A DNA stretch of 64,000 nt. It comes from Longimicrobiales bacterium (GTDB taxonomy: Bacteria; Gemmatimonadota; Gemmatimonadetes; Longimicrobiales; Gaopeijiaceae). The stretch spans positions 820,248-884,247 of the forward strand of contig CBDBTX010000002.1 in assembly GCA_965211905.1 (NCBI GenBank), read 5' to 3'. Of the stretch, positions 17,356-63,156 are shown piece by piece. The notes under the pieces are model-generated. The model did not search any database. It was given only the letters and a program-made list of their open reading frames with translations, and was not told where the DNA came from. The position numbers and the translations under genes are program-made. Every line of letters begins with the position of its first letter. Positions within the stretch are counted from its first letter, which is position 1.

Positions 17356-17591
17356 GTTTTCCCGTTCGGGTAAACTTGGTGTCCAACGGCTTGCTCCACG
17401 GCTAGTTTTCCCGTTCGGGTAAATCCGATGCCTTCCGCAACGTCTCAGAGAGTTGTTTTCCCGTTCGGGTAATTCAACGGGTTTGACTGAGGTCGCGTGC
17501 TCTGTCATTTTTCCCGTTCGGGAATGCGCTTTGGATGAGAATTGAGGTCCCAAGGCACAGACCCGGCAGACATTGTTTTCCCGATCGGGAA
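17356..17591. promoter_or_regulatory. Array of five GTTTTCCCG(T/A)TCGGG(T/A)AA palindromic repeats upstream of hipB (putative HipB operators)
   Basis: The repeats start at 17356, 17405, 17455, 17508 and 17575. The core is TTCCCG-NN-CGGGAA and is a perfect palindrome in the last two copies. The last copy ends 6 nt before the hipB ATG. Confidence 0.6.
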
Positions 17592-17597
17592 GGGGCT

Positions 17598-17891
17598 ATG
17601 CAAATGACGCCTGCGGAAATTGGACGCATCGTGCGGGTTGCCCGACGGGCACAGGGTCTCCGCCAGGATCAGTTGGCGGGGGCCGCCGGTGTCGGCGTCC
17701 GTTTTCTGTCGGAACTCGAGAGAGGCAAGCCGACCGTGCGGTTGGAGAAGATGCTTGCGGTGCTCGATACCCTCGGGTGCCGGATCCTCATCGAGATGCC
17801 TCCCGGCGAAGCCGCGCCAGGTGAAGAGGCCGCGGAGCGACCCGATGCTCCGAGCGGCCGCGGCCCGACGCCGGGTTGGTCCTCGGAATGA
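17598..17891 (+). CDS. hipB: HipB-like XRE-family HTH antitoxin
   Basis: The ATG at 17598 is in frame inside ORF 17535..17891. HTH segment RAQGLRQDQLAGAAGVGVRFLSELERGK. Its stop overlaps the hipA start (ATGA). Confidence 0.8.
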   Translation: MQMTPAEIGRIVRVARRAQGLRQDQLAGAAGVGVRFLSELERGKPTVRLEKMLAVLDTLGCRILIEMPPGEAAPGEEAAERPDAPSGRGPTPGWSSE

Positions 17892-19192
17892 CCCGCTCTC
17901 TCATCGTCCGGTGGGGCAGCTCGGTTGTCGGTCGCCTTGCCCTGGATCGACACGGTGCGATGCGCTTCACCTACAACGGCGAGTGGATCGAGGACACCGC
18001 GGCGCCACCGATCTCGTTGTCGCTGCCCAAGCAGCCGCAGAGCTTCAGCCGGCGCCTTTGCCTGCCGTTCTTCGAGGGGTTGTTGCCGGAGGGTGCTCAA
18101 CGCGATGCCGCCGCTGCGGCGCTTGGCGTGTCGGCTTCGAACACCTTCCGTCTACTGGCCGGGCTCGGAGCGGAGTTGGCGGGTGCGCTCACCCTGCTGC
18201 CCGACGACGAAGAACCGGGCGGCACGGCGGCGGGTGGGGCGCCCGAGCCTCTCTCGGATGACGAACTGGTCCTGCTGCTGGAGACGATCCGGACCCGACC
18301 GTTTCTGGCTGGTGCCGCGCGGGGACCCGGGCGCATTCCGGGGGTCCCGGGGCGAGGCCTGCGGATGTCGTTGGCCGGAGGCCAGTCCAAGCTGCCTGTT
18401 GTACTGGTCGATGACCGCGTCGCGCTTCCCGCACCCGGGCAGCCGACCACGCACATTCTCAAGCCGCCGATCCCCGACCTCGACGCCGCTACCGGGAACG
18501 AGACCTTTGCGATGCGCCTTGCGGCGCGCATGGGGTTGGCGGTCGCACCGGTGCGCCCTGCAGTGGTGGCCGGCAGGACGTACCTGCTGGTGGAGCGGTA
18601 CGACCGACGGACTGCCCCGGACGGGTCGGTGGAGCGGCTGCACCAGGAGGACTTCTGCCAGGCGCTCGGGATCGTACCAGACAGGAAGTACGCGTCGGAC
18701 GGAGGTCCCGGGTTTCCACAGTGTTTCGAATTGATCCGCCGGGTCTGCACGCGTCCCGCAGGAGACGTGCTCGGGTTGCTCGATGCCGCGATCGTCCAGG
18801 TGCTGCTCGGCAACGCGGACGCCCACGGAAAGAACTACAGTCTTCTCCGAACCCGGAGTGGCCAACTGGGGCTGGCTCCGCTCTACGACCTTCTGTCGAC
18901 CATTGCCTATCCGCGCTACTCCCCGCGGTTCGCGATGAGCATCGCGGGCCGCAGAACCCTGAAAGAACTGCGGCGCGGTGACTGGGACCGGTTCGCGAGA
19001 CGGTGCGGATTGGGGCCGCGGTTCGTCCGGCAGCGTGTGGCGGAGCTGTGTGCCGCGGCGAGCGAGGCGGGTGGTGCGGTGGCGACGGAACTCACGCTGC
19101 CCGGACTTCGGGAGGAGGCACTTGTGAGCCAGGCCGAGCTGGTCGCGAAGCGGGCGGCACGCCTGGCCAACACGGTGGTGCAAAACCCGTGA
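17888..19192 (+). CDS. hipA: HipA-family serine/threonine kinase toxin
   Basis: N-terminal coupling domain (FFEGLLPEG), LAGGQSKLPV, and a catalytic GNADAHGKNYSLL motif. Confidence 0.9.
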   Translation: MTRSLIVRWGSSVVGRLALDRHGAMRFTYNGEWIEDTAAPPISLSLPKQPQSFSRRLCLPFFEGLLPEGAQRDAAAAALGVSASNTFRLLAGLGAELAGALTLLPDDEEPGGTAAGGAPEPLSDDELVLLLETIRTRPFLAGAARGPGRIPGVPGRGLRMSLAGGQSKLPVVLVDDRVALPAPGQPTTHILKPPIPDLDAATGNETFAMRLAARMGLAVAPVRPAVVAGRTYLLVERYDRRTAPDGSVERLHQEDFCQALGIVPDRKYASDGGPGFPQCFELIRRVCTRPAGDVLGLLDAAIVQVLLGNADAHGKNYSLLRTRSGQLGLAPLYDLLSTIAYPRYSPRFAMSIAGRRTLKELRRGDWDRFARRCGLGPRFVRQRVAELCAAASEAGGAVATELTLPGLREEALVSQAELVAKRAARLANTVVQNP

Positions 19193-25264: not shown

Positions 25265-25424
25265 CGGGGGGCAGGAACGCTCCATCAAGGGCCGAGGAGG
25301 AGGTGATCCTTGGCTACGCGAAGGTGGCCAAAGGAGCGGAACTCGGCGATCTTGGCGGAACATGGATCCTAGCCGAGGAGGCCCGCATAATCCCCATGGA
25401 AGACATCCTCCGGCCCGTCGGTAC

Positions 25425-25625
25425 GTTACGCTCATATATTGATCTAAATATGATACTATTATGTATGCTAGAGTGTCTATCATATCCTTATCTTAGTATA
25501 CGGCTAAAACTATGGTATATAACGAGTTATCAGTACACCCATTGTCGAGACACCAATATATTATCGACTATCTAATCATATAATATGCGTATATTCTATT
25601 TAATATGAGCATATCAGCCTTGGAT
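25425..25625. other. Strongly AT-rich block marking a compositional break (island boundary)
   Basis: About 200 bp dominated by A/T (tatattgatctaaatatgatactattatg...) in an otherwise GC-rich window. GCTCATAT ... ATATGAGC inverted 8-mers lie near its two ends. Confidence 0.7.
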
Positions 25626-25804
25626 TGCAAATGGATGCCATTGTTCCGCCTTGTCCTAATAGCACGTTGATAGGCCAAAAGATGCCTATATTGGCAACCA
25701 GTTCCATTGTACCGAGCTGGACCCCCCTCATCCCTGCTCCTTGTTGCGACCCTTGTGCGATCACTATATCGTTTTTTCGGATCGTATTGCTATCGTACTG
25801 ACTG

Positions 25805-25832
25805 TTGACATGCGCGATACACATGCTATCAT
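25805..25832 (+). promoter_or_regulatory. Sigma-70-like promoter for the island operon
   Basis: TTGACA (25805-25810), a 16-nt spacer, then TATCAT (25827-25832), about 40 nt upstream of the AAAGGA RBS and the ATG at 25874. Confidence 0.6.
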
Positions 25833-25873
25833 TAGTGGGTAGCATCCACAGACCCTATAGCGAAAGGACAGAC

Positions 25874-26398
25874 ATGGACGTGGAAATGGAAATCCGAGCG
25901 ATGAAGCGAATTGCAGGAATCCTCGACGATTTCGGAGATGCAACCGACAGCGACGCCCTGGCGCGGATTCTCACCTGGGTGACGGCGCGGTACGGGAATC
26001 CTTCTGTTCCTGTTTCCTCGCCGGGAACCTCGGCCGTGACGGAAGCGGAGGAACCTGAAGGAGCGGAGAGATTCGTGAATCTGGCGGAGTTGATTGATGC
26101 CGCCGCCCCGAGGACGGACGCAGATCGGGCGCTGGTTGTCGGCTACTGGCTGACGAGGTCGAACGGGGATGGAGACTTCCGGTCGCGGGAGGTAAACGCA
26201 GAGTTGAGGAACTTCGGTCATCGGGCAGCCAATATCACTTCCGTGTTCACTCGGCTCATGAACCGAAAACCCGCGCTGGTAATGCAGACGGCGAAGACAG
26301 GCACTACGCGACAGGCTCGGAAACGGTACAGACTCACTCGAGCCGGTCGTGATGCGGTAGAGCGAATGATCGACGCCGCGCGGGGATCCGAAGCTTGA
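25874..26398 (+). CDS. Hypothetical protein A: short helical N-domain, acidic/Pro linker, C-terminal winged-helix-like domain
   Basis: ATG at 25874 with an AAAGGA RBS. GC is lower than the flanks. The C-terminus ...RKRYRLTRAGRDAVERM is a wHTH wing-like motif. Paralogous to protein C. Confidence 0.65.
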   Translation: MDVEMEIRAMKRIAGILDDFGDATDSDALARILTWVTARYGNPSVPVSSPGTSAVTEAEEPEGAERFVNLAELIDAAAPRTDADRALVVGYWLTRSNGDGDFRSREVNAELRNFGHRAANITSVFTRLMNRKPALVMQTAKTGTTRQARKRYRLTRAGRDAVERMIDAARGSEA

Positions 26399-27174
26399 GT
26401 AGGGGACACTCCTCGGTAGACGTGCTACGGAACCGGCTGGGGGCGTCTCTCAACGACGGCTTGGTGGACGAGTTGTTGGCAGCCTACCGTGAGGCTAAAA
26501 GAAACCATTACCTCGGTGGGCACCGGCTGAGCGCAGTAGAAGGGGGACGCTTCTGCGAGGCGGCCTATCGCATCCTTCAAGACGTAACTACTGGTGCCTT
26601 CACACCACTGGGCAGCACTCTCAACGCCGAAAGAGTCACCCAACAGCTCGCCAACTACCCGGTCGGGTCCTTCCCGGACTCGGTCCGTTTGCACATACCC
26701 CGAGCCTTGCGGGTGATCTACGATGTCCGCAACAACCGAGACGCTGCCCACTTGGCAGATGGGATTGATGCCAACGTTCAAGACTCCAACTTGGTGGTGG
26801 GCATTCTCGACTGGGTACTGGCTGAGTTCGTGCGGCTCTACCACCACTTAGAGCCACGAGAAGCGCACGAGTTGATAGTCGGGCTGGTGACTCGGAACGC
26901 TCCGGTCATTGAAGACTCCGATGGATTCCTAAAAGTGTTGAATCCCCGCCTTCGGGCCGGTGAACACTGTCTCGTGGTACTCTACCAGAGAGATCGCGCG
27001 GGTGCCACGTACGAAGAACTCCTGAAGTGGGCGCGCCCTCCGATGCGCGGCCACCTGCGGAGGACACTGCGCCGCTTGGAGCACACGCTGGCCCTTGTCC
27101 ACAGTAACAACGAGAGGTATCGAATCACCATCAGCGGAAAACGCGAGGTCGAGCGGAAACGCCTCTTCGCCTAG
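26395..27174 (+). CDS. Hypothetical protein B: HEPN/DUF4145-like N-domain plus a C-terminal winged-helix-like domain
   Basis: The TTG start overlaps the stop of A (TTGA). The motif VRNNRDAAH fits the HEPN Rx4-6H pattern and lies between predicted helices. C-terminal ...NNERYRITISGKREVE. Confidence 0.6.
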   Translation: MSRGHSSVDVLRNRLGASLNDGLVDELLAAYREAKRNHYLGGHRLSAVEGGRFCEAAYRILQDVTTGAFTPLGSTLNAERVTQQLANYPVGSFPDSVRLHIPRALRVIYDVRNNRDAAHLADGIDANVQDSNLVVGILDWVLAEFVRLYHHLEPREAHELIVGLVTRNAPVIEDSDGFLKVLNPRLRAGEHCLVVLYQRDRAGATYEELLKWARPPMRGHLRRTLRRLEHTLALVHSNNERYRITISGKREVERKRLFA

Positions 27175-27248
27175 GCTCACCCCAGTCTGCACTCAACAGA
27201 CGAAGACCCACGAAGAGGAATCCTTGCCCTCCAAATGAGGAGACGGAA

Positions 27249-27755
27249 ATGACTGCACATGAGGCAAAGGTCAGATTCAGGGTTGGTAGTGTAGAGCTTG
27301 AGTATCAGGGTCCGGCCGCTTACATCGAGGATGGCCTGATCGAGTTGTTGGAGAAAGTGCTCAGCTACCGCGACGACGACGTCGACCAAAACGAACGACC
27401 CCGTGAGCCCACTCCCAATCGAGGAGAAGAGTCAGGGCGGAAGCGAGGTAACCACGATATCTCGCTGGCCACAATGATCTCTCGCTTAGGAGGTAAGACG
27501 GGTCCAGATGTGGTGTTCATGTCGGCCGCGCACTTGGCATTGTGCCAAAACAGAGGCTCGTTCTCACGAGCCGAGATACTTGAGAACGCGAAGACGGCGG
27601 TAGGCCACTACAAGAAATCGATCAGCGGTAACCTCACGAGCTACCTGAGACGGTTGCTCGCTGACGGGCGCCTTAGCCAACACTCTGACACCACCTATTC
27701 TTTGCCGGAGAGGCAGAGAAAGATAGTGGAGAATCAACTGGCCAACGCTTCATAA
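27249..27755 (+). CDS. Hypothetical protein C: paralog of protein A
   Basis: GAGGAGACGGAA RBS before the ATG. It has the same N-domain / charged linker / C-domain layout as A. C-terminal ...DTTYSLPERQRKIVE. Confidence 0.65.
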   Translation: MTAHEAKVRFRVGSVELEYQGPAAYIEDGLIELLEKVLSYRDDDVDQNERPREPTPNRGEESGRKRGNHDISLATMISRLGGKTGPDVVFMSAAHLALCQNRGSFSRAEILENAKTAVGHYKKSISGNLTSYLRRLLADGRLSQHSDTTYSLPERQRKIVENQLANAS

Positions 27756-27787
27756 GCCCAGCAAGGGGTGTGCCTGGCCCAGTGCAT

Positions 27788-28226
27788 TCACCCGCCCTCC
27801 GCGATCCCCACCAACTCCCCCGCCGGCAGCGCCCGCACCCGCTCCGCCAGCCGATACCGCTCCGTCCCCGCGTGCACCACGTGAAGCCGGTCCAAGCCCA
27901 GCGTCTCCACCGCCGACCGCATCGACCGCGTCGGCCGCGGTGCCTCCGAGCGCTTGACCTCGAATCCGTAGCGCCTCGATCCCGTCCAGCACCAGAAGGT
28001 CGAGCCCCGCGCCTGTGTGGGTGGACCAGTGGAAGCACTGCTCCAACGGCGCGTGCATCAGCTGGACGATCTGCTGAATCACGAACCCCTCCCACGAAGC
28101 CCCTTCCTTGGGATGCGACATCACATCCGTCCGGTCGGTGAGGTCGAGCAACGCGTGGAGGACGCCCGAGTCCGCGATGTAGACCTTGGGAGAGCGGACC
28201 TGCCGCTTGCTCCAGGTGTTGCTCAC
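27788..28226 (-). pseudogene. 5'-truncated, frameshifted DUF4143-domain ATPase remnant
   Basis: ORF 27750..28226 reads KVYIADSGVLHALL...GASWEGFVIQQI...THTGAGLDLLV. The homologous tail YGFEVKRSEAP...LHVVHAGTERYRLAERVRALP continues in another frame to a stop at 27788. No AAA domain remains upstream. Confidence 0.7.
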
Positions 28227-28497
28227 CGGGCATCAGCATTGTTGAAATATGAACGATCCGCGATCAGGTCTTAATACACCTACACGCAACCCTGCCCCTG
28301 TCTCTCGTTGCGATCACATCACCAAAAATATTGCAATATCATCATTATAGTCATTGCAATCTTATCAATATGAGGTTAGGTTGATTGGTTCCGAGCACCC
28401 ACGAGAGCCCAAGAGCCCCGTCAAAGTGACCTACCATCCCGACATTCCCTCTCGCCACGTCGTGCGCGAACCCCCGGCGCGATGGCCGCTCGCGCCG

Positions 28498-29775
28498 ATG
28501 CGCCGGGAGTATTGGCACCGTGTGGCGGATCGGGAACTGAAGCAACGCCTGGCCCGATCCGGAGCCGTGCTGATCGAGGGGCCGCGGGCATGTGGCAAGA
28601 CGGCTATGGCCAGGCAACTCGCGGCCAGCGGTGTCCGGCTCGACGCCGACAGGTCCGCCCGCAGGGCCGCCAGGGCCGATCCCGAATTCCTTCTCGAGGG
28701 GGCGACGCCCCGCCTGATCGACGAGTGGCAACTGGTGCCCGAAATCTGGAACCATGTGCGCCACGAAGTCGATGACCGCCCGGGCCGGGGACATTTCATC
28801 CTGACCGGTTCGGCTGTTCCGCCCGACGACATCACCCGGCACACCGGAGCTGGGCGAATTGGCCGGCTGCGGCTGCGGCCGATGTCGCTCCTGGAGCTGA
28901 GGCGGTCGACTGGCGAAGTATCGCTCGCACAACTGTTGGCCGGTGATCCGATTCCCGGGGCCGCGGCGAAGCTGACCGTGCGCGAGCTCGCCAAACTGGT
29001 GTGCGTGGGCGGCTGGCCCGGACATCTCGGCTCGTCATTCGATGATCCGCCGCTCTCCGTGGACGACGCCATGGCGGAGAACCGGGACTATCTCGGCGAA
29101 GTCTGCAGGACCGACATCCGGCGCGTGGACGGCTCGGACCGGAATCCGGCGAAGGTCGGACGATTCCTGCAGTCGCTGGGCCGCAACGTCGCCACCTGTG
29201 CGAGCATGGCCACACTGGCCCGGGACGCCCGCGGACCTCACCAGCACCTCACCAACTACACGGCCAACTCCTACATGACCGCGCTCGAACGGCTCATGCT
29301 CGTGGAGGATCAGCCGCCCTGGTCACCCCACCTTCGGTCCAGGTCGCGACTTCGGGCCGCGTCCAGGCGCCATTTCGTGGATCCGTCGCTGGCCGTAGCC
29401 GCCCTGAGCGCCGGCCCCGATCATCTGCTCCACGACTTCGAGTGGTTCGGCTTCCTGTTCGAGTCGATGGTCGTCCGGGATCTGCGCATCTACGCCCAGG
29501 CGAGCGGGGCGAGCGTGTACCATTACCGTGACAACACGGGGCTGGAGGTGGATGCCGTCGTGGATGCAGGGCCGGGGCGATGGGCGGCGTTCGAGATCAA
29601 GCTGGGGGCGACGCGGGTCGACGAGGGTGCGAAGACGCTCCTGAAGTTCGCGGACAGGGTGGATACGGATCGCTGCGGGGAGCCAGCGGCACTCGGCGTG
29701 ATCGTGGGAAGCGGGTACGGCTACGCGAGGCCGGACGGGGTGAGCGTGATCCCGCTGGGGGCGTTGGGCGTGTAG
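28498..29775 (+). CDS. AAA+ ATPase with a DUF4143 domain
   Basis: ATG at 28498. Walker A GPRACGKT and Walker B-like RLIDEW. A C-terminal DUF4143-like region ends in a restriction-endonuclease-like EIK motif. Confidence 0.8.
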   Translation: MRREYWHRVADRELKQRLARSGAVLIEGPRACGKTAMARQLAASGVRLDADRSARRAARADPEFLLEGATPRLIDEWQLVPEIWNHVRHEVDDRPGRGHFILTGSAVPPDDITRHTGAGRIGRLRLRPMSLLELRRSTGEVSLAQLLAGDPIPGAAAKLTVRELAKLVCVGGWPGHLGSSFDDPPLSVDDAMAENRDYLGEVCRTDIRRVDGSDRNPAKVGRFLQSLGRNVATCASMATLARDARGPHQHLTNYTANSYMTALERLMLVEDQPPWSPHLRSRSRLRAASRRHFVDPSLAVAALSAGPDHLLHDFEWFGFLFESMVVRDLRIYAQASGASVYHYRDNTGLEVDAVVDAGPGRWAAFEIKLGATRVDEGAKTLLKFADRVDTDRCGEPAALGVIVGSGYGYARPDGVSVIPLGALGV

Positions 29776-29850
29776 GGAGGGCGGTTGTCCAGCTTCAGCC
29801 CGATGAAGAGCAGGGTCAGGAGCGAGAGGAAACCCGGACCACTGCAGCCC

Positions 29851-29888
29851 GTTTGTCCGCCAAAAAACACCTGTTTTGGCGGACAAAC
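29851..29888 (+). terminator. 15-bp perfect hairpin downstream of the ATPase gene
   Basis: GTTTGTCCGCCAAAA-aacacctg-TTTTGGCGGACAAAC, followed by atcagtttt. Confidence 0.55.
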
Positions 29889-30030: not shown

Positions 30031-32211
30031 ATGAGCACCCAGAGACGTTTCGATTCCGTCAGCGCCGCCAAGACCTGGAGCCGCACGCCGGAATCCAGAT
30101 CAGGCGACCGGGACTTCCTTCCCCGCGTTTTCGGGGAGGACACCTTCGGGATGAAGGAGATGCAGTCCCGGCTGCCGGAGAACGTCTTCAAGCAGCTGAT
30201 GAGAACGGTCGCCCACGGCGAGGAGCTCGATTCCGGCGTTGCGGACACCGTCGCGGCGGCGATGAAGGACTGGGCGCTCTCACGGGGCGCGACCCACTAC
30301 ACGCACTGGTTCCAGCCGCTCACGGGGAGCACGGCCGAAAAGCACGACTCGTTCCTCAAGGTCGGGCGGGACGGCCGCGCCATCACCGACTTCGGAGGCG
30401 ACGAACTCGTGCAGGGCGAGCCCGACGCGTCCTCGTTTCCGTCGGGAGGACTGCGGGCGACCTTCGAGGCGCGCGGCTACACGGCCTGGGATCCGACCTC
30501 GCCGGCGTTTGTGCTCGGCGGCGAGTCGGCGACCTACCTCTGCATTCCGACCGCATTCTCCAGCTGGGCCGGCGAGAGCCTCGACGCGAAGATCCCGCTG
30601 CTGAAGTCGATTGCCGCGCTCGATCGCGTCACGCGCCGCGCGCTGAAGCTCTTCGGCGAGGAGCCGAGCCGCGTCACGGCCAGTCTGGGACCGGAGCAGG
30701 AGTTCTTCCTCGTCGACCGCGAGTTCTACTACCGCCGTCCGGACCTGATGACCTCCGGCCGCACCCTCTTCGGGGCGAAGCCGCCGAGGGGACAGGAACT
30801 CGACGATCACTACTTCGGGACGATGCACGAGCGCGTGCTTGCGTACATCCAGTCCGTCGAAATGGACCTGTATCGCCTTGGCGTTCCGATGAAGACGCGC
30901 CACAACGAGGTGGCGCCGGGGCAGTACGAGATGGCGCCGGTCTACGAGGACGCCAACGTGGCGTCGGACCACCAGCAGCTGACGATGCGCGTGCTGGAGC
31001 GCAACGCCCGCCGCTACGGCCTCGTGTGCCTCCTGCACGAGAAGCCCTTCATGGGGATCAACGGGAGCGGCAAGCACGTCAACTGGTCGTTCGGCACGGC
31101 GAGCCGCAACCTGATGGACCCCGGCGACACGCCCCATGACAACCTGATGTTCCTCTTCTTCTGCACTGCGGTGATGAGCGCGGTGGAGAAGCACCAGGAC
31201 CTGTTGCTGGCCTGCGTCTCGACCGCCGGCAACGACCACCGTCTGGGCGCCAACGAGGCCCCGCCCTCGATCATCTCGGTGTTCCTGGGCAGCCAGCTGG
31301 GAGACATCTTCGACCAGCTGGAAGAATCCGGCCAGGCGAAGGAAAGAGAGCGCGAGGGCCTGCTCGGGCTGGGCGTGAACGTGCTCCCCGACCTGCCGCG
31401 CCATTCGGGGGACCGCAACCGCACCTCACCCTTCGCCTTCACGGGGAACAAGTTCGAGTTCCGCGCGGTGGGCTCGGCGGCCAGCATCTCGCTGCCGGCC
31501 ACCGTGCTCAACACGATCGTCGCCGAGTCCATAGACGAGTGGACCGACGTGCTCGAGCCGATCGTCGCAGCGGGCACCTCCATCGAGGACGCGCTGTGGA
31601 CGCTGCTCGCGAACGAGATCCCGTCCTTCAAGCGGATCATCTTCAACGGCGACAACTACTCCCAGGAGTGGGTGGACGAGGCGGAGCGCCGCGGCCTGCT
31701 CAACACCGGAAACACGGTCACGGCGCTGCCGGCGCTCGCGTCCCACAAGAACGAGGAACTCTTCAACCGCTACGGCGTCATGACGCCGCGCGAGCTGGAT
31801 GCGCGGCTGGAGGTGCTGACCGAACAGTACTTCATCAGGATCAACATCGAGGGAGAGACGGCGGCGCGAATTGCCCGCTGCATGATCCTGCCGGCTGCCG
31901 TGACCTATCTGAACCGGCTCGGGTCGGCGCGGAGCGGGACGCAGGGGGCGGGCGGTTCCACGGCGGGCCTGGACAGCAACATCGCCCGGGTCTCCGGCCT
32001 CATCGACGAGCTGAGCGCCGCGCTCGACGAGCTCGATGCGCAGAACGAGGAACTCGGCGGCGACGAGGTGTCGTCGAAGGTGGTCCACATGCGCAACAAC
32101 GTGATCCCCGCGATGAATGCGGTGCGCGAGGTGGCGGACCGGATGGAGAAGGTGATTCCGGAGGAGCTGTGGCCGCTGCCGACCTACCGTGACATTCTCT
32201 TCGTGAAGTAG
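30031..32211 (+). CDS. glnN: Glutamine synthetase type III
   Basis: 726 aa. N-terminal FGEDTFGMKEMQSRLPENVFKQL and THYTHWFQPLTG, and the central NGSGKHVNWS motif, are characteristic of GSIII. Confidence 0.9.
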   Translation: MSTQRRFDSVSAAKTWSRTPESRSGDRDFLPRVFGEDTFGMKEMQSRLPENVFKQLMRTVAHGEELDSGVADTVAAAMKDWALSRGATHYTHWFQPLTGSTAEKHDSFLKVGRDGRAITDFGGDELVQGEPDASSFPSGGLRATFEARGYTAWDPTSPAFVLGGESATYLCIPTAFSSWAGESLDAKIPLLKSIAALDRVTRRALKLFGEEPSRVTASLGPEQEFFLVDREFYYRRPDLMTSGRTLFGAKPPRGQELDDHYFGTMHERVLAYIQSVEMDLYRLGVPMKTRHNEVAPGQYEMAPVYEDANVASDHQQLTMRVLERNARRYGLVCLLHEKPFMGINGSGKHVNWSFGTASRNLMDPGDTPHDNLMFLFFCTAVMSAVEKHQDLLLACVSTAGNDHRLGANEAPPSIISVFLGSQLGDIFDQLEESGQAKEREREGLLGLGVNVLPDLPRHSGDRNRTSPFAFTGNKFEFRAVGSAASISLPATVLNTIVAESIDEWTDVLEPIVAAGTSIEDALWTLLANEIPSFKRIIFNGDNYSQEWVDEAERRGLLNTGNTVTALPALASHKNEELFNRYGVMTPRELDARLEVLTEQYFIRINIEGETAARIARCMILPAAVTYLNRLGSARSGTQGAGGSTAGLDSNIARVSGLIDELSAALDELDAQNEELGGDEVSSKVVHMRNNVIPAMNAVREVADRMEKVIPEELWPLPTYRDILFVK

Positions 32212-35996: not shown

Positions 35997-36140
35997 GCGT
36001 CTGCGCCGCAGAAAGCCGCAGCGGCTATCTTTGGTTCCGCCGCCGCCATGTCGACGATTTCGGGGCGGTGTTCGCTGACGCTTGGAACCTGAAGGGTATC
36101 GGAGGGGTGGGCGGGTCTGCTTCCCAGTGGTCATGCAGAT

Positions 36141-36183
36141 TATCGTTGAATATCGTCCCGGCACGGCACGATATTCAACGATA
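36141..36183. repeat. AT-rich 16-bp perfect inverted repeat (hairpin) followed by a T-tract
   Basis: TATCGTTGAATATCGT-cccggcacggc-ACGATATTCAACGATA, then TTTTG. It could be the terminator of the lipoprotein gene or a structure at the left flank of the IS. Confidence 0.6.
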
Positions 36184-36261
36184 TTTTGTCGGACTGGTCG
36201 GCTGGGGTCACTGATCGAGACACCGTCAACGAACAGAATCCGCCGGTTTGCAGTCCCGTGT

Positions 36262-37894
36262 GGAAATGTAAAGTGCGATTACCTTTATGTAACTCTCATG
36301 GCCGACTGGGCTGGCCACCCCCCGGAGCTGAAACTATAAGTCAGGCACGGCGGGGGCAGAGGTCGATAGACATAATGGTGCCGGAGAGCCCGGTATGTAA
36401 CATGATCCAGGGCGCTACGGGGAACCCCACAGTGCTGAGGCGGCCCCTTGAGGGTCGTCATCGCGGACGGAAAAGTCGCAATCGAAGAGCGCCCGCTCCC
36501 GCCCGGAGACCATCAGCCCGGGAGGGGAGACATGAAGGTAGTGATCGAACGGTGCGCGGGCCTCGACGTGCACAAGAAGACAGTGGTGGCGTGTGTCCGC
36601 ACGCCGGAGGTGGGCCGGGGGAAGCTCGGGAGCAAGGAGATCCGGACGTTCGGGACCTCGATGAGGGGACTGGAGGCGTTGCGGGCGTGGCTGGCTTCGT
36701 TCGGCGTGACCGAAGTCGCTATGGAGTCCACCGGCGTGTACTGGCGCCCGGTGTATGCGGTGCTCGAGGCCGACTTCCGCCTGCTTCTGGTCAACGCGCG
36801 GCATGTGAAGCACGTTCCCGGCCGCAAGACCGATGTCCGGGATTGCGAGTGGCTTGCTCAGCTACTGGAGTGCGGGCTACTCAGGGGAAGCTTCGTGCCG
36901 CCGCCTGAGATCCGCGATCTGCGTGATCTGACCCGGTTCCGCAAGACCCTGATTGAGGACCGGAGTTCCCTGGTCAACCGGGTGGGCAAGACCCTGGAGC
37001 TGGCGAACGTCAAGCTGGCGTCCGTGGTGTCGAACATCATGGGTGTGACGGGGCGGAGGATCCTGGAGGCCATGATCAAGGGTGAGGACGATCCGAAGGT
37101 CCTCGCGGATCTGGCGCGCGGCAGCCTCAAGGGGAAGCGCAGGGAGCTCGCCGAGGTCGTTCCCGGCCTGATGCGGGACCACCACCGGTTCGTGCTGCGC
37201 CGGCAACTGGACCTGATCGACGAGTTGTCGCGCCAGATCGAGAAGCTGGACATGCGGATCGCCGCGGTGACGGATGTCCCTTTCGGGGCGGCGCTCGACC
37301 TCCTGCAGAGCATTCCGGGGGTCGGGCGCCGGTCGGCCGAGGTGATCCTGGCGGAGATCGGTGACGACATGTCCAAGTTCCCGACGCCCGGGCGCTTCGC
37401 CTCCTGGGCCCGGGTCTGTCCGGGCAACCATGAGAGTGCCGGGAAGCGCAAGCCCGCATCGATCGGAAAGGGCAACGCCTGGCTGCGAAGGGCATTGTCC
37501 CAGGTGGCGTGGGGCGCCGTGCGGACCAAGGGGTGCTACTACGGCGCCCTGTACCACCGCAAGAAGGCAAAGGGCGGCTCGAAGAAGGCCATCGTGGCCG
37601 TCCAGCACGCGATCATGGTCGCAATCTGGCACATGTTCTCGACAGGCTCCACCCACGAGGACCTCGGGCCGGACCACTTCCAGCGCCACGACAAGGAACG
37701 ACGGCTCCGATACCTGAAAGCGCAGATGGAGAGGTTGGGCGTTAGTGTCCAGATACACGACGAAGCCGCCTGAACTCCCCGGTCGGCTTCCCCACCCCGC
37801 TCGGATGACCGCGCGACAAGGGCCCTCCTGTCACCCTCGACTTCAGTGCATCACGCCAGAGCACCGACACCACCCCCGAGTTTCACGGAAATGT
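36262..37894 (+). mobile_element. IS110-family insertion sequence (boundaries tentative)
   Basis: It contains the DEDD transposase gene with a ~260-nt non-coding, lower-GC left end. GGAAATGT occurs at both 36262-36269 and 37887-37894. The boundaries are not proven. Confidence 0.45.
36532..37773 (+). CDS. IS110-family DEDD transposase/recombinase
   Basis: GGGAGGGGAG RBS before the ATG. N-terminal GLDVHKKT, ESTGVYW and VNARHVKHVPGRKTDVRDCEWLA. C-terminal SIPGVGRRSAEVILAEIGDDMSKF and CPGNHESAGKRK (Transposase_20). Confidence 0.92.
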   Translation: MKVVIERCAGLDVHKKTVVACVRTPEVGRGKLGSKEIRTFGTSMRGLEALRAWLASFGVTEVAMESTGVYWRPVYAVLEADFRLLLVNARHVKHVPGRKTDVRDCEWLAQLLECGLLRGSFVPPPEIRDLRDLTRFRKTLIEDRSSLVNRVGKTLELANVKLASVVSNIMGVTGRRILEAMIKGEDDPKVLADLARGSLKGKRRELAEVVPGLMRDHHRFVLRRQLDLIDELSRQIEKLDMRIAAVTDVPFGAALDLLQSIPGVGRRSAEVILAEIGDDMSKFPTPGRFASWARVCPGNHESAGKRKPASIGKGNAWLRRALSQVAWGAVRTKGCYYGALYHRKKAKGGSKKAIVAVQHAIMVAIWHMFSTGSTHEDLGPDHFQRHDKERRLRYLKAQMERLGVSVQIHDEAA

Positions 37895-40966: not shown

Positions 40967-42472
40967 TTGCGAGCCGTCGTCCCTCTGCTCGCGACCCCCG
41001 GGGCTTGCGTCTGCGTGGTCTGGCTGGCCGGATGCGCGGACGGCGCAACGGGCCCGACCGACCAAAGGGCGGAGCCGGTTCTGCCGGCCACCCCCACAGT
41101 CGCGTTCTCGAGCGGGTTTACAGGCGCGGCGGAGGGTGGCACTGCAGTGCTGAGGCTCGCGGTCGCCCCTTCGTCGGAAGCACCCATCGCTCTCGGCTAC
41201 TCGATCGGTGTGGACGGAGATAGCGGAACTGACGACGCGGACAGCGCGGACTACGTCGGTGAACCCCACGACACGGTGCGAATCAGCGCCGGCGACACGA
41301 CCGGCACCATCGCAATCGAGATCAGGGACGACAACGACATCGAGCCGGCGCGCGAGGTGCTGACCGTCACGCTGCACGCGCCCGCCGCAGGGGCCGGATT
41401 CGTTCTCGGTCCGCGCGACACGGCGGTCGTCCTGATCGAGGAGGGTGTGTGCGACCGCACACCCCGGATACAGGAGGAAATCCTGCGGGTAGCCGGCTTC
41501 GCCGACTGTCTGGAACCGAGTGGGGAGAACCTGGCCGCGATAGTCGACCTGGAGCTGTGCAATCGCGAGGAATGGCCCCGTTGCCAGCGCCAGGACGCGG
41601 TCATCCCCGAACTTCGTCAAGGCGATTTTCAGGGACTCTCCGGGCTTGAGCGGCTCACGCTGGCCGGTGTCGGGCTGGCGGACGTCCCCGACGGTGTCTT
41701 TTCGGACCTGGCCGGGCTGCAGACCCTGCGGCTGGAGAACAACCGGCTGGCCCTGCTCCCCGAACGTGTGTTCTCCGGATTGTCGAGCCTGGGCAGCCTG
41801 AGCCTTGCAGGCAACCGACTCACCGAATTGCCCGCGGGTGTGTTTTCACCTCTGTCCAGCCTCTGGTGGCTGGAATTGAGCCGGAATCCGATCAGGGAGC
41901 TTCCAGCCGGAGCTTTCAGCGGCCTCTTCAATCTCTCCGGCCTGGAGATCGTGAACAGCGAACTCGGGGAACTCCCGGCGGGGATGTTCATCGGCCTGTC
42001 GAAACTGCGCTCGCTGGACCTGCGGGCCAACCCCGGAACTCCCTTCGATCTGTCCCTGCAACTTGTACGCATTGACAATGAGGACCTCATGGCTACCGGC
42101 CCCGCGGAGATCGCCGCCCGCGCGGAGCAGGGCACACCTTTCCCGACGGAAGTCATCCTGTTCATCGAGGGAGCCGGCTCGTTGCGTGACACGCTCGACA
42201 TCGAGACCGGCCATGCAAGGAGCACGACGGTCACCGTCACGCGTGATTCGGCGCGCACGGAGGGTACGCGCATCACCGTGCGGTCCGTGTCGCGGGCGCC
42301 GGAGGATATCCTCGGCGTAGAGTTCAGGGTGGCGGATCCGATCGTGCTCTTCGCAGCGCCGTCCCCGGCGCGGTCGGTGAGTCCGGCGTCAGGTGCGGGA
42401 TCGCGCCACCGGGCTACATTGTCACCCCGGCCTTCGGAAAGCCGCTTGCCGCGTCTCCCGCCCGCGGGGTGA
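40967..42472 (+). CDS. Lipoprotein with a Calx-beta-like domain and leucine-rich repeats
   Basis: Putative TTG start and lipobox WLAGC. A Calx-beta-like segment (DYVGEPHDTVRISAGDTTGTIAIEIRDDNDIEPAREVLTVTL) is followed by L..L.L..N.L..LP.G.F LRR units. Confidence 0.65.
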   Translation: MRAVVPLLATPGACVCVVWLAGCADGATGPTDQRAEPVLPATPTVAFSSGFTGAAEGGTAVLRLAVAPSSEAPIALGYSIGVDGDSGTDDADSADYVGEPHDTVRISAGDTTGTIAIEIRDDNDIEPAREVLTVTLHAPAAGAGFVLGPRDTAVVLIEEGVCDRTPRIQEEILRVAGFADCLEPSGENLAAIVDLELCNREEWPRCQRQDAVIPELRQGDFQGLSGLERLTLAGVGLADVPDGVFSDLAGLQTLRLENNRLALLPERVFSGLSSLGSLSLAGNRLTELPAGVFSPLSSLWWLELSRNPIRELPAGAFSGLFNLSGLEIVNSELGELPAGMFIGLSKLRSLDLRANPGTPFDLSLQLVRIDNEDLMATGPAEIAARAEQGTPFPTEVILFIEGAGSLRDTLDIETGHARSTTVTVTRDSARTEGTRITVRSVSRAPEDILGVEFRVADPIVLFAAPSPARSVSPASGAGSRHRATLSPRPSESRLPRLPPAG

Positions 42473-48667: not shown

Positions 48668-49109
48668 ACGCCGAGCGCCCGTGAACGGTGCTGGCGCGGG
48701 AGCGCTGTCTGCTTGACACGACTCCAGCGGAAATTCATACTTTACGGCCACGCGCATCTGCGCAATCAAGTGGGCTTATCCGCGGGGAACCTTCCCGCCT
48801 CCCATGACCGCTCCACTCGGAGCGAGGACAATCGTTCCGGCTCGGTCATGTGGGGAGAATCCGATCCATGTCCGGGCATTGCCCACACCCTCAAGAGGGC
48901 CCCGCTGTGGCGGGGCACATGGATTCTTGATCCGGTCAGTCACTGGGTCTGGGATCGCACTGCAGGACGTCTCGACGAATCCAGGCGACAATGGTGCCAG
49001 GGCGCTGGACGGATTGTTGGCAGGTGCGGTCATCTCGTTGGGGGAGGTGAGGCGATAGAACCGCCGATCGGCGAAGAACCCACTTCCAGAAGAAAGGAAC
49101 GCGAGTCCG

Positions 49110-49406
49110 ATGAAATACATTCGTCCATGGAGAACGGTGCTCATCCCCACTCTCACCCTCGTCGTCGCCGCGTGCGGCGACCTTACCGGAGAGTCCGGGT
49201 GGCGCTGCGACGTGACCCTCACGATGGACAACCGGACCGGGTCCGGCTCAGGGACGGGTTCCACGCAACAGGAGGCGCTTGACCAGGCGCGTTCTGCGGC
49301 CTGCGCCCAACTCGGGCTCACCGGAGAGGCGCTTAGCCGCTGCCAGGCTGGGCAGAATCCGGGTGCGTTGTCGTGGTCGATGGACATCGATTGCGAGACG
49401 ACGTAG
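49110..49406 (+). CDS. Small Cys-containing lipoprotein, hypothetical
   Basis: AAGGAA RBS, signal peptide with lipobox VVAAC, 98 aa. Confidence 0.55.
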   Translation: MKYIRPWRTVLIPTLTLVVAACGDLTGESGWRCDVTLTMDNRTGSGSGTGSTQQEALDQARSAACAQLGLTGEALSRCQAGQNPGALSWSMDIDCETT

Positions 49407-53800: not shown

Positions 53801-55026
53801 CGGGGTTGGTCATCCAGCCGGGGCTGGAGGTCGTGATCGAACCGGATCCGGAGGGCATGCTGGACCCCGCACTGGGCGTGGCCAGGCGCATCCCCGCGAC
53901 GGGCCGGATGGCGGTCGACGTCCGGGCGATGCCGGTGTTCGAGGTGACGCTCGTGCCCTTCATCTGGGAGGAGAACCCGGATTCCTCCATTGTGGACATC
54001 ACCGCGGCCATGGCCGCCGACCCGGGCGGGCACGAACTGTTTGAACGGACGCACCTGCTGCTGCCGGTCGCGGAGCTGGACGTCACGGCGCACCCGGCAG
54101 TCGCTTCGCCGACGAACAACGGCTTCGAAATCCTGGCGCTTACGGAGATGATCCGGGTCGCCGAGGGCGGGCGCGGCCATTACCTGGGTGTAATGGCTGG
54201 AACCACGGGACCGGGAGGTCTCCTCGGCGTGGCGAACGGCATCGGAAGCTGGTCGAGCTTCTCGGTCCTCGATTCCGAAACAATCGCGCATGAATTCGGC
54301 CACAACCGCAATCTGTATCACGCGCCGTGCGGCGGAGCCGGCGGACCGGACCGGTACTACCCCTACGGCCGCGGCAGCATCGGTGCCTGGGGCTACGACT
54401 TCCGAACAGGCGAACTCGTGCCGCCCGGCCGACCGGACTTCATGTCCTACTGCGAGCCGACATGGACCAGCGACTACCAGTTCACGAACGCGGTGCGATA
54501 CCGCCTGGAGACAGAGACCAACTCGATCCTGGTCGCGGCTGCGGGCGCCCGTGCTGCGGCTTCCTCCAGCCGGACGCTTCTCGTATGGGGCGGTCTGGAT
54601 GGCGACGGCGCCCCGTACCTCAGGCCGGCTTTCTTCATCGGCGCCCCGCCGTACCGGCCATCGGCCGATGGCGCGTGGTCGCTCACGGGGCGGGATCCCG
54701 GCGGCGCGGAACTCTTCGCAGTGTCCTTCGCAATGTCGGAGTTCACGGACACGGAAGACGACCACGCCGGGTTCACCTTCGGCCTGCCGGTGACGTGGAG
54801 CGGGGAGCTGGCGAGCATGACGCTGCAAGGCCCGGGAGGCTCTGCCAGCCTCGATCGCGACAGCCAGGATCCCCTCACGATCCTGCGCGAGGCCGCGACG
54901 GGCCGAATCCGCGGCATCGTCGACGACCCGGCGACGATGGCGGTCCGCTCAGCTTCCGCTACGGCGGGGGGCCAGGAGTTCGAGGCCCTCTTCAGCCGCG
55001 GAATTCCCGATCCGCCGGAATCGTGA
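50842..55026 (+). CDS. Giant lipoprotein: plant-type LRR arrays plus a C-terminal M66-like zinc metalloprotease domain
   Basis: Lipobox ALLAAC. Several blocks of 24-aa L.G.IP.ELG.L..L..L.L..N.LSG units, each preceded by a DR.IL.ALY.AT.G..W cap. The C-terminus has HEFGHNRNLYH (HExxHxxxxxH) in an M66-like context. Confidence 0.8.
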   Translation: MRSQCRLRSRTATVARTHAPGQAAVLTIALLAACGDESVVDPPAALVSASEWSAAAAATSDRDILIALYEATDGPNWVNNENWLSNAPLGEWYGVDTDASGRVVQLDLSGTWDDEARREVAHGLRGAIPSEIGKLIRLERLELGMNSLTGPIPVELGELASLERLILNSNDLSGPIPAELGAATSLTTLDLGYNSLSGPIPSEIGDLPNLRRLMLIYNDLTGPIPPELGNLASLSALWLRDNELSGMVPPELGGMVGLTELSLQNNDLSGPIPQSLVQLNGLRQFFIAGNESLCVPGTSSFVAWLQGVQHNGASCNAGDVAVLETLYELTDGADWTESGGWLGAGAVEEWFGVTADSLGRVTALDLTRNGLVGKLPARLGDLSQMNVLRIGGNALMGRLPALLAQVALEVLDYSGTELCTPADEAFREWLKAIVSHEGTGVECAPLSDREILEILYETTGGRDWEESHNWLTEAPLGEWYGVETDADGMVVSLDLRRNGLEGPIPPALGALTELETLILFRNQLAGPIPPALGALAGAKLIVLAANELSGPIPPELAGLASVEELFLNSNRLTSVPAELGELGNLQALSLNFNRLNSIPAQLGGLAELEYLGLRSNELTSVPPELGELGNLVELDLDDNRLTALPVGPDSYPSLRLLFLSSNEFTSFPWELSELDRLWLLILERNRLTDVPPGSGGFADLRVLDLSSNELTSFPRELGTLGNLRQLELDGNRLTDIPPGLREMAGGERPPRYADESPPFARSLTEPGRPWRLDRAGDRLTSIGKRLSTLDASRTHGEFDRSRSTNGGSRVGGFASIEVLDLSSNQLSGSLPAGLVELTGLASLGLADNVGLTGALPLDLTAMEGLEDLHTTGTELCAPADPTFLDWLGGVTRQRVALCDRDADAAAYLTQSVQSREFPVPLVAGKPALLRVFVTAKRATDVALPPVRATFYQDGAVAYELDIPTNQDPIPAAIDESSLSKSVNAEIPGLVIQPGLEVVIEPDPEGMLDPALGVARRIPATGRMAVDVRAMPVFEVTLVPFIWEENPDSSIVDITAAMAADPGGHELFERTHLLLPVAELDVTAHPAVASPTNNGFEILALTEMIRVAEGGRGHYLGVMAGTTGPGGLLGVANGIGSWSSFSVLDSETIAHEFGHNRNLYHAPCGGAGGPDRYYPYGRGSIGAWGYDFRTGELVPPGRPDFMSYCEPTWTSDYQFTNAVRYRLETETNSILVAAAGARAAASSSRTLLVWGGLDGDGAPYLRPAFFIGAPPYRPSADGAWSLTGRDPGGAELFAVSFAMSEFTDTEDDHAGFTFGLPVTWSGELASMTLQGPGGSASLDRDSQDPLTILREAATGRIRGIVDDPATMAVRSASATAGGQEFEALFSRGIPDPPES

Positions 55027-55153
55027 TTGCAGGTAGTTGATCTCGGTGGCCAATCCGCGCTCTTCGCTGCCCAGCTCCCGCTGGATGGCGGTTGCGAGGT
55101 GATTTCGTTTTCGTCCCACTCGGGGAGTCCAGCGTCCTGATATGTTGGCTTAG

Positions 55154-55988
55154 GTCGCCTCGGCCACCGGTCGGTTCAAGCGCTGGATCTACCACTGGGC
55201 GATGAAGGTGGGAACGGCCGCCGCCGACCGCCGATCCAACGGCAAGCCCCCCGGCCCGCTCGCCCGCCTCCGCCGCCGCCTCGCCGACTGGACCGTCTTT
55301 CACCCGATCCGGGATCAACTGGGCCTCAACCAGGTGCGGCGCGCCTACACCGGTGGCGCGGCCCTCGGCCCCGATGTCTTCCGGTTCTTTCATGCCATCG
55401 GCGTCAACCTGAAGCAGCTGTACGGGCAGACCGAGGTGTCGGGCATCTCGGTGGTCCACCGCGACGGCGACATCCGCTTCCATACCGTGGGCACCCCGTT
55501 TCCGCAGACCGAGATCCGCATCTCCGGCGACGGCGAGATCCTCTGCCGCAGCCCCGCCGTCTTCCAGGGCTACTTCCGCAACCCCAAGGCGACGGCCGAG
55601 ACGCACCACCATGATCGCGATCGACATGGAGAACGCGGGACAGTGGGCCGAGCGCCACCGCATTCCGTACACCACCTTCACGGACCTGGCGCGCCGCGCC
55701 GAGGTGTACCGCCTCGTTCGCAGCCATGTCGGCACCGTCAACCAGGATCTCCCCAAGGCCGCCCGCATCCGCCGCTTCCTCCTCCTCCACAAGGAGCTGC
55801 ACGCCGACGACGCGGAGCTCACGCGTACGCGAAAGGTGCGCCGCCGCTACATCGCCGACCGCTTCGCCGACATTATCGCGGCGCTTCAGGGAGACGGCGA
55901 TTCGGTCACCGTAGAAACCGAGATCACCTACCAGGACGGGCGCACGGCCGAAGTGGCGCACGAACTCCGCATCGAGACGCTGGACTGA
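55154..55988 (+). pseudogene. Decayed second copy of the 3' part of the acyl-CoA synthetase gene
   Basis: Collinear with 45652..46664, but with an in-frame TAG at 55151 upstream and a 200-nt internal deletion (junction 55604/55605) that shifts the frame. Confidence 0.85.
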
Positions 55989-60573: not shown

Positions 60574-61092
60574 ATGAGAAAAGCCAGCCGCAGATTTCTT
60601 TCGGTGGCAGCCGCCATGCTCCTGGTGGCGATCCCGGTCGGCGCGGGCGGCCAGCCCGAGCCCGTCGCGGGGTCCCCGACCGCTTCATTCCCGGTCGCCT
60701 TGCTCGACGTCGCGTCGCTCGACGATCCCACCGTAGTGGGCTGGCGGCTCCTGGCCAAGCTCAACTACCGGACCGGCGAGAAGACCGAAGAGTTGGCCGA
60801 GCTGGAAGGCAAGCTCGTCAAGGTCCCCGGCTTCACGGTGCCACTCGAGGATTTTGCGTCTTCGGCGACGGAATTCCTCCTCGTGCCGTACGTTGGCGCC
60901 TGCATCCACACGCCGCCGCCACCGCCCAACCAGCTCGTCTACATCCAGATGGACGATGGGAAGCGCGCGAAGATGGACGGCTGGAACCCCGTGTGGGTCG
61001 AGGGCGTGCTCAGCATCGAGATGACGGAGAGCGTGTACGGCTACGTGGGCTTCACCATCACCGGCGAACGGGTGTATCCGTACGAGGCATGA
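60574..61092 (+). CDS. DUF3299-domain protein
   Basis: GGAGG RBS and a signal peptide. LLVPYVGACIHTPPPPPNQLVYI is the characteristic DUF3299 motif. Confidence 0.7.
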   Translation: MRKASRRFLSVAAAMLLVAIPVGAGGQPEPVAGSPTASFPVALLDVASLDDPTVVGWRLLAKLNYRTGEKTEELAELEGKLVKVPGFTVPLEDFASSATEFLLVPYVGACIHTPPPPPNQLVYIQMDDGKRAKMDGWNPVWVEGVLSIEMTESVYGYVGFTITGERVYPYEA

Positions 61093-61157
61093 GCCGCGAT
61101 TGGGCCGCGCGCTTGCACCGGTTGCGGCATGAGGCCTCTCCGAGCCGAGGGCCATAG

Positions 61158-63103: not shown

Positions 63104-63156
63104 GGGGCGCCGGTTTGGTGCGGGCGCGGGATCGAGTATCGAACAGGAGCAGCGTC

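Follow-up and report, generated by a model that had tools for sequence, protein, structure and literature searches.

The window analysed here is a stretch of 64,000 nucleotides from a Longimicrobiales bacterium (Gemmatimonadota; contig CBDBTX010000002.1, positions 820,248 to 884,247 of the forward strand), and the element under study is a set of three co-directional genes, hereafter A, B and C. Open reading frames (ORFs) were found on the + strand at 25805-26398, 26395-27174 and 27249-27755, behind a sigma-70-type promoter (TTGACA-16-TATCAT, 25805..25832, + strand) with an extended -10 (TG), which agrees with the consensus at 11 of 12 positions; both the genes and the promoter proposed in an earlier reading of the DNA letters alone (the sequence-only reading) were thereby confirmed. 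Promoter-like sites numbered 4 in the region, against 1.5 expected from shuffles. Because the TTG at 25805 is itself part of the -35 hexamer, the true start of gene A is most likely the ATG at 25874 (gene A, 25874-26398, + strand), which is preceded by AAAGGA 5 nt upstream and gives a product of 174 amino acids (aa), the length of the closest homologues. Gene B (26395-27174, + strand, 259 aa) starts within the stop of A, in a TTGA overlap at 26395-26398 with GGGGA 8 nt upstream, while the NCBI gene call places its start nine codons later (250 aa). This 4-nt overlap, pointed out beforehand, was also present at three related loci (as TTGA in L091 and L001, as ATGA in L094). Gene C (27249-27755, + strand, 168 aa) follows after 74 nt, not after the 73 nt first counted, and its proposed ribosome-binding site, GAGGAG (27237..27242, + strand), was read from the sequence 6 nt 5' of the ATG.

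The composition profile set the operon (GC 0.55-0.61) apart from its flanks (0.64-0.72) and from an AT-rich non-coding stretch at 25400..25800 (strand not assigned; GC approximately 0.40) that separates the multicopper oxidase gene from the promoter. The same difference, which the sequence-only reading had described, was seen in the GC content at third codon positions (GC3: 0.64, 0.70 and 0.64 for A, B and C, vs. 0.85-0.94 in neighbouring host genes). The trio is real and foreign in composition, and was horizontally acquired, and recently. When the upstream non-coding DNA of four trio loci was compared (the window, L091, L094 and L001), the -35 area was partly conserved, and no conserved block was found past this promoter area. 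Rfam had nothing at the locus, the AT-rich leader included; as to marks of an integrative element, only short, chance-level direct or inverted repeats were found in the flanks, and no tRNA genes.

None of the three proteins matched any model above threshold in Pfam, NCBIfam, PADLOC or PHROGs, in line with the previous statement that none belonged to a nameable family. The only signal, below threshold, was between the C-terminus of A and PadR (PF03551; 20 bits vs. a cut-off of 27 bits, E 7e-4; residues 129-186 of the 197-aa ORF), which does not place A within PadR; a precomputed PF03551 match was present on one truncated homologue of A. Searches of the trio against PADLOC-DB v2.0.0 gave only chance-level matches (LmuC 0.015, PD-T4-6 0.0064), and A and B from locus L077 gave no match in that database. 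Neither single sequences nor profiles found anything relevant among PDB sequences, Foldseek searches against viral structures returned nothing, and 30 homologues of B scanned singly showed no HEPN or other informative family.

In order to characterize B, in which a HEPN-type motif had been noticed from the sequence, two AlphaFold models were obtained. The first, of full-length B with 30 close homologues (pLDDT 81), showed an all-helical N-domain followed by a C-terminal winged helix (approximately residues 186-255; 26950..27159, + strand), and the outcome of Foldseek for its N-domain was unclear. The winged helix matched the MarR family (3eco, probability 0.99; 5hsm, 0.97), was similar to that of A (hhalign probability 72%, E 3.4e-5) and had TubR as a weak profile match. 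The second model, of residues 1-169 with 83 more diverse sequences, reached a pLDDT of 91.7 and a pTM of 0.88. In this case HEPN domains dominated the top of the Foldseek PDB matches (probability 0.93-0.99, target-normalised TM 0.43-0.66, E only 0.07-1), namely TT1696 (1ufb, 0.99), TM0613 (1o3u, 0.98), AF_0298 (2hsb, 0.96), ST0689 (1wol, 0.96) and the HEPN domain of sacsin (3o10, 0.93), with Csm6, 4nqf, 2q00, AbiV and a HEPN-MNT toxin also listed. The modelled HEPN core covers residues 21-150 (26455..26844, + strand) and consists of helix 1 (21-39), helix 2 (43-66), an insert (67-94, helical at residues 78-86), helix 3 (95-114) and helix 4 (127-149).

The features regarded as diagnostic of HEPN domains include a polar residue after the motif arginine, an acidic residue in helix 2 in the form E-x3-[KR], and an insert between helices 2 and 3 (PMC3710099). 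All four criteria of that study have their counterpart in B: the motif R112-N-N-R-D-A-A-H119 (26728..26751, + strand) lies at the end of helix 3, which closes at residue 114; its second residue, N113, is polar; helix 2 carries E55-A-A-Y-R59 (26557..26571, + strand); and the insert is that of residues 67-94. Residues E55, R112, H119, D130 and W140 were invariant in the 83-sequence alignment, which extends down to 26% identity, R59 was invariant in the 30-sequence alignment, and N113 and R115 were invariant or nearly so. Across 62 loci from many phyla the segment of helices 3-4 had a mean identity of 77%, vs. 66% for helices 1-2, an unusual degree of conservation for the catalytic core. We conclude, from the modelled fold and the motifs, with no profile match, that B is a HEPN protein with intact catalytic motifs, and because of this fold and of these invariant motifs it is predicted to be a HEPN ribonuclease (RNase); it would be toxic when free.

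The family of B proved to be large. A total of 1841 homologues were present in a collection of 5.8 billion proteins, and the best 120 of them were 56-80% identical to B, any named ones being hypothetical proteins. In an exhaustive profile search, clusters built at 50% identity numbered 1118 at E ≤ 1e-3 and 208 at E ≤ 1e-30; the full-length proteins were uniformly of approximately 250-265 aa, with no domain fusions. Among 185,579 species genomes (one genome per species), relatives 46-77% identical to B were confirmed in at least 132, and the family covers Gemmatimonadota, Acidobacteriota, Planctomycetota, Verrucomicrobiota, Actinomycetota (Streptomyces, Amycolatopsis), Alpha-, Gamma- and Deltaproteobacteria, Bacteroidota, Nitrospirota and the candidate phyla radiation, as well as Nitrososphaera and an uncultured archaeon. 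The distribution is patchy across phyla and domains, and the family is widely transferred.

The neighbourhood of B was then compared among 80 genome loci anchored on this gene, whose flanking ORFs were clustered all-against-all. There was exactly one recurrent neighbour, a gene of approximately 190 aa directly upstream on the same strand (71 of 80 loci, median gap 23 nt). A of the window matched the hidden Markov model of these upstream genes at E 5.5e-30, and iterative searches raised the number of loci with an A-superfamily gene upstream of B to 72. Two of the eight loci left were interrupted by an insertion sequence (IS) or by a contig end, and the other six, all alphaproteobacterial (L033, L040, L052, L054, L056 and L057), carry other small upstream genes. 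In these six, B is preceded by two unannotated small genes (approximately 185 aa and 120 aa), which look like alternative partners of B; the type of approximately 120 aa also adjoins A in L049 and L055. Downstream of A-B, no recurring gene was found among the 80 loci. A and B are obligately paired, and the conserved unit is the A-B pair rather than the trio: the synteny that the sequence-only reading expected in other genomes holds for the pair, and holds for the trio only in the closest subclade. In a Longimicrobiales metagenome-assembled genome (MAG), one contig of 1.29 Mb bears two copies of B (L002 and L003) cut at residue 27 by an identical DDE-transposase IS (473 aa), with the A gene of L002 lying 3.2 kb upstream; there the module is disrupted, and duplicated along with the IS.

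Protein A, for which 93 homologues were found, begins with a helix (approximately residues 1-40), which a linker of low conservation (41-66) connects to a PadR-like winged helix at the C-terminus; the wing is basic (SRQARKRYRLT), and in most relatives the tail is rich in lysine and arginine. Identity within the family followed these segments (25% in the N-terminus, 11% in the linker and 41% in the winged helix), and the mean pairwise identity of A was considerably lower than that of B (31% vs. 55%), a faster evolution that is typical of an antitoxin with respect to its toxin. A and B also have the layout of a type II toxin-antitoxin (TA) system, since they are adjacent, co-directional, close or overlapping, with the partner first, and found together. 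On the grounds of gene order, of the overlap of stop and start, and of the faster evolution of A, this protein is taken as the cognate partner of B, and by analogy is predicted to repress or neutralise it. The wing motifs noticed beforehand at all three C-termini (YRLT in A, YRIT in B and YSLP in C) are each conserved in their own family, and all three proteins end in winged-helix domains.

Taken together, A-B is best explained as a self-contained conflict module of two genes, mobile by horizontal transfer and similar in type to toxin-antitoxin systems, with C as an extra A-type copy confined to this subclade, a reading to which we give about an even chance. According to it, B would be the effector, a metal-independent HEPN ribonuclease that, judging from the fold and the invariant motifs, would be active as a dimer and would be placed on nucleic acid or on its partner by the winged helix at its C-terminus. 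The winged helix of A would bind DNA, probably the promoter of its own operon, autoregulation by the first gene being the usual logic of TA systems, while the N-terminal helix and flexible linker of A would keep B inactive. Loss, titration or degradation of A, for instance upon infection, stress or loss of the cassette, would free B, which would then cleave cellular or invader RNA and stop growth.

Several results weigh against this interpretation. At the level of B itself, neither the protein nor its 30 homologues matched any HEPN model of Pfam, NCBIfam or PADLOC at E values up to 1-5, and in the Foldseek search of the N-domain against PDB no match reached E 1e-3, the best being 0.07. Both A and B are bigger than classical type II TA proteins, and the conservation of B is unusually high for a toxin. 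The direction of control, with A inhibiting B, is drawn from analogy. The search for an operator upstream of A, based on k-mers, found none conserved across lineages. As to mobile elements, tblastn with B gave no match in 50,697 phage records and one distant match in 72,556 plasmids. Finally, the two nearest genes on each side of the module in the 80 genomes were mostly housekeeping genes (IMPDH, CTP synthase, RNR, PEPCK, transporters), a few being transposases, methyltransferases, Z1 or TrwC, and only a handful of the 131 nearest neighbours were strong matches to known defence models (JetC, methyltransferase, HsdS, MADS, PD-T4-6, MzaC).

The only plasmid match mentioned above corresponds to a 290-aa hypothetical protein on plasmid PL131 of Natronomonas pharaonis (L096, 5971-6843), which is 31% identical to B over the HEPN half and adjoins a transposase of the ISH6 family. 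The sole motif shared upstream of A, GCGACATAAGCGCGAC, was confined to actinobacterial loci (L058, L060, L062, L064 and L080; Streptomyces, Allokutzneria and Amycolatopsis), in which it stands approximately 155-180 nt 5' of A, between this gene and a divergent gene of approximately 310 aa conserved in those loci; it may be a lineage-specific operator.

The conservation of B over its whole length, unusual for toxins, the presence of winged helices in both proteins and the largely housekeeping neighbours would also suit a pair without toxicity, in which B would be a transcription factor or a site-specific RNA-processing enzyme with a narrow target, A its co-regulator, and the outcome an accessory trait. 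A role of this kind has a precedent within the fold, given that the MtlR family of HEPN proteins acts in regulation (PMC3710099). However, the R-x4-6-H motif has been lost in regulatory HEPN families (PMC3710099), yet it is invariant in B; moreover, no target gene or neighbour is conserved, relatives of A are coupled to a RelA/SpoT-like enzyme (see below), and the patchy distribution, the transfer and the foreign composition are better suited to a selfish or accessory module. A regulatory or RNA-processing pair is for these reasons considered improbable.

The broader family of A bears on the interpretation of the pair as a conflict module. In locus L077 (2145-4512), a second winged-helix gene of the A family was found in front of a ParA-like ATPase (AAA_31, 1.9e-30; also CbiA) and a protein with a RelA_SpoT domain (PF04607, 1.5e-16). 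A metagenome scan with an A-family peptide pattern yielded 425 relatives; among the 80 loci most similar to the L077 gene (L097-L176), the order A'-ParA-RelA/SpoT was present in 77 of the 78 that had room downstream. This sister operon, which likewise carries no annotation, lies directly upstream of an A-B pair in L077 and L099. The identity of A between the two types of operon (31%) was similar to that within B-type loci (30%), and the A proteins of each type formed separate groups, as the nearest neighbour belonged to the same type in all 147 cases. The sister operon gave in PADLOC only a P-loop-level match for ParA, and no description of it, nor of a two-gene system formed by a HEPN plus winged-helix protein and its partner, was found in the literature.

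The A family is therefore coupled not only to B but also to ParA plus RelA/SpoT, and A looks like a reusable control or adaptor protein with exchangeable effectors; a control protein common to two potentially toxic effectors is a pattern of conflict systems. In mechanistic terms, A would be a reusable control element with swappable toxic outputs. A further generalization, which we put forward tentatively and regard as less probable than not, is that the A family defines an unrecognised modular class of conflict systems, in which a DNA-bound control protein would be combined with interchangeable toxic outputs (the HEPN RNase with its winged helix, or the ParA-like protein with a RelA/SpoT-like nucleotide pyrophosphokinase) and would provide anti-phage or anti-plasmid immunity in bacteria and archaea of soils and sediments.

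Protein C is of much narrower distribution. It starts with a conserved beta/alpha element (VRFRVG-ELEYQG), which is followed by a linker and by a C-terminus resembling a winged helix, and had only 13 database matches, all of them on contigs bearing the closest relatives of A and B; within the 80 genomes it was present in a single one (L001, a Gemmatimonadetes MAG). The trio is confined to the nearest subclade, with B at least 74% identical. The proposal that C is a winged-helix paralog of A was borne out, at a distance, by the comparison of the C-terminal domains (hhalign E 5.9e-4, probability 29%) and by an iterative search from a divergent A-like protein (L026), which reached the C homologue of L001 at E 4.8e-4. 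C is thus a weakly related, lineage-specific paralog of A. Other lineages have 2-4 A-like paralogs per locus (L070, L077, L079), the overall range being 1 to 4. With such a restricted occurrence (1 of 80 genomes, 13 database matches), the possibility of C as a universal third component was rejected.

In order to evaluate the mobility of the trio, its copies were compared between genomic contexts, of which there were at least two: after a multicopper oxidase gene (the window and L094) and after dctPQM (L001 and L091-093). The upstream flanks of the window and L094 were highly similar (88-90% identity in DNA and 85-90% in protein), while their cassettes shared only 69% of the DNA and 55, 75 and 55% of proteins A, B and C, respectively. 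The window cassette was closer to L091/L093, in the other context (76% DNA identity over 25860-27732, blastn), and this aligned block (25860..27732, + strand) is taken as the extent of the mobile cassette. Since the window copy is nearer to the copy in another context than to the syntenic one, the alleles have either been replaced at a hotspot, or the cassette diverges rapidly. Given the predominance of housekeeping genes around A-B in the 80 genomes, the pair behaves as a self-contained cassette landing anywhere, nearer in this respect to TA modules than to systems confined to defence islands. The trio islands, on the other hand, hold local conflict and mobile genes (RelB/YafQ, HicAB, DUF433/DUF5615, an AbiEi-like gene, transposases) together with DUF4143/AAA_14 ATPases, among them the PADLOC candidate PDC-S01. 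The defence-type accessory context suggested by the sequence-only reading was therefore found in the window, in L094 and in L091-093, and did not extend to the 80 genomes.

This context, together with the frequency of HEPN effectors in defence systems (PMC3710099), would fit a dedicated anti-phage system, in which A (with C) would be a sensor or activator, A and B would be bound to DNA by their winged helices, and the RNase of B would be switched on by a phage component or by foreign DNA, leading to abortive infection. The trio subclade lies amid TA genes, an AbiEi-like gene and DUF4143/PDC-S01 ATPases; some of the nearest neighbours elsewhere are JetC, methyltransferase/HsdS, MADS, PD-T4-6 and MzaC; the cassette alleles at one locus have diverged far beyond their flanks; the number of A-like paralogs per locus, from one to four, would fit a diversified sensing; and a RelA/SpoT-like effector is coupled to members of this A family too. 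Nevertheless, the flanks are mostly housekeeping genes, there is no PADLOC match, and the family was not found in phages or satellites, so that a dedicated sensor-effector system is regarded as unlikely, if still deserving some weight. The toxin-antitoxin-type module remains the preferred reading.

The ATPases next to the trio were evaluated separately, as the trio could belong to a more extensive system that includes the neighbouring DUF4143/AAA_14 ATPase genes. Such a gene is convergent to C both in the window, where it is a decayed fragment (27750-28226, - strand), and in L094, where it is intact; in the window, a second and intact copy follows (28354-29775, + strand), matching PADLOC PDC-S01 at 4.7e-67. 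The window fragment aligns to both ends of the intact 387-aa gene of L094 (8566-9729; 82% and 77% identity), with approximately 700 bp missing between them, while A, B and C beside this deletion remnant are intact. The trio occurs without such an ATPase in L001 and L091-093, and no ATPase family recurs beside A-B in the 80 genomes. The DUF4143 ATPase was consequently rejected as a component of the system, and the larger assembly is judged very improbable. The variable island of L094, located between the Cu-oxidase and a type III glutamine synthetase, carries further copies of these ATPases and four genes that have no annotation (479, 252, 474 and 412 aa; one coiled-coil).

Other features of the window were recorded along with the trio. 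A segment of 56 bp found after the intact ATPase (29790-29845) is 89% identical to one located upstream of the cassette in L094 (5784-5839), and may represent a scar left by recombination or a short repeat element. The leader of the gene for type III glutamine synthetase (30031-32211) contains, at 29850-29888, a perfect inverted repeat of 15 bp, GTTTGTCCGCCAAAA-N8-TTTTGGCGGACAAAC, which could be a terminator or a regulatory hairpin. Besides the decayed and the intact ATPase, the IS110 transposase mentioned in the sequence-only reading was found (36448-37773). As for hipBA, the HTH_3 gene was located at 17535-17891, and the one match to HipA_C, from a batch holding the ORF at 17876-19192, probably belongs to that ORF. 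Genes with low GC3 (0.49-0.74 vs. approximately 0.9) were detected at 17535-18981, 36082-36339, 41005-42214, 48713-49282, 54992-55822, 60685-61155 and 63100-63699, and include the HTH_3 gene beside the HipA-like ORF and a small ORF just upstream of IS110, which suggests that the window holds several other acquired segments.

HEPN RNases are the killing or arresting part of many immune and TA systems, such as Cas13, Csm6, RnlA, HepT and PrrC. The family of B is large and has no name in the domain and defence libraries searched, and no description was found of its architecture, in which the HEPN domain precedes the winged helix. If the pair is toxic and regulated as proposed, it would represent a new TA or defence family in environmental phyla that are poorly covered by experiments, and an example of different effectors being exchanged on one control protein; it would also provide a compact RNase of approximately 1.3 kb that has its own domain for nucleic-acid binding and lends itself readily to testing.

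Compared with known systems, the A family resembles the small DNA-binding partners of ParA and centromere binders (ParG, omega and TubR-like proteins), since it is likewise located 5' of a ParA-like ATPase in the sister operon and combines a flexible N-terminus with a small DNA-binding domain. In contrast to these, no partition context or centromere repeats were found, and the operon ends in a RelA/SpoT-like enzyme or, in the window, in the HEPN RNase. A likeness to PadR/MarR repressors and to DNA-binding antitoxins was also observed, A being weakly PadR-like and the C-terminus of B MarR-like, but A falls below the Pfam threshold and differs by an additional helix at the N-terminus, by a disordered linker and by the K/R-rich tail of most relatives.

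With regard to B, the CARF-HTH-HEPN proteins Csx1/Csm6 share the HEPN domain and a helix-turn-helix-type domain, and Csm6 was among the Foldseek matches; Csx1 and Csm6, however, require CARF domains, and B has none; it is also far smaller, its domains are arranged in another order, and it lies outside any CRISPR context. In CoCoNuT systems, CnuE has an elongated N-terminal winged helix and a C-terminal HEPN domain, and always occurs with the CnuH helicase and McrBC homologues (PMC11090510). Like B, it has a winged helix fused to a HEPN RNase, and its system is a predicted conflict system (PMC11090510), whereas in B the domain order is the reverse and neither helicase nor McrBC neighbours were found in the 80 genomes, which places B outside this group.

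The closest resemblance is to the TA and abortive infection (Abi) modules with HEPN toxins (HepT/MntA, RnlA/RnlB, AbiV, AbiD/F and ApeA), which have the same intact R-x4-6-H motif and acidic motif in helix 2, and which are likewise compact operons with a partner gene, patchy in distribution and horizontally transferred; the order with the partner first and an overlapping effector gene is, in turn, that of type II TA systems. The differences are that B has no profile match to any of these families and carries its own C-terminal winged helix, that the spacer from R to H is of 6 residues, that both window proteins are larger, and that the partner is a winged-helix protein and not an MNT nucleotidyltransferase or RnlB. 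The module falls outside HEPN-MNT (HepT/MntA) in particular, as neither A nor C matched a nucleotidyltransferase in Pfam, PADLOC or NCBIfam and no such gene recurs as a neighbour. The A-B module is thus most like the HEPN-toxin TA and Abi modules, but stands outside every named family against which it was compared, and both the architecture of its effector and the family of its partner are new.

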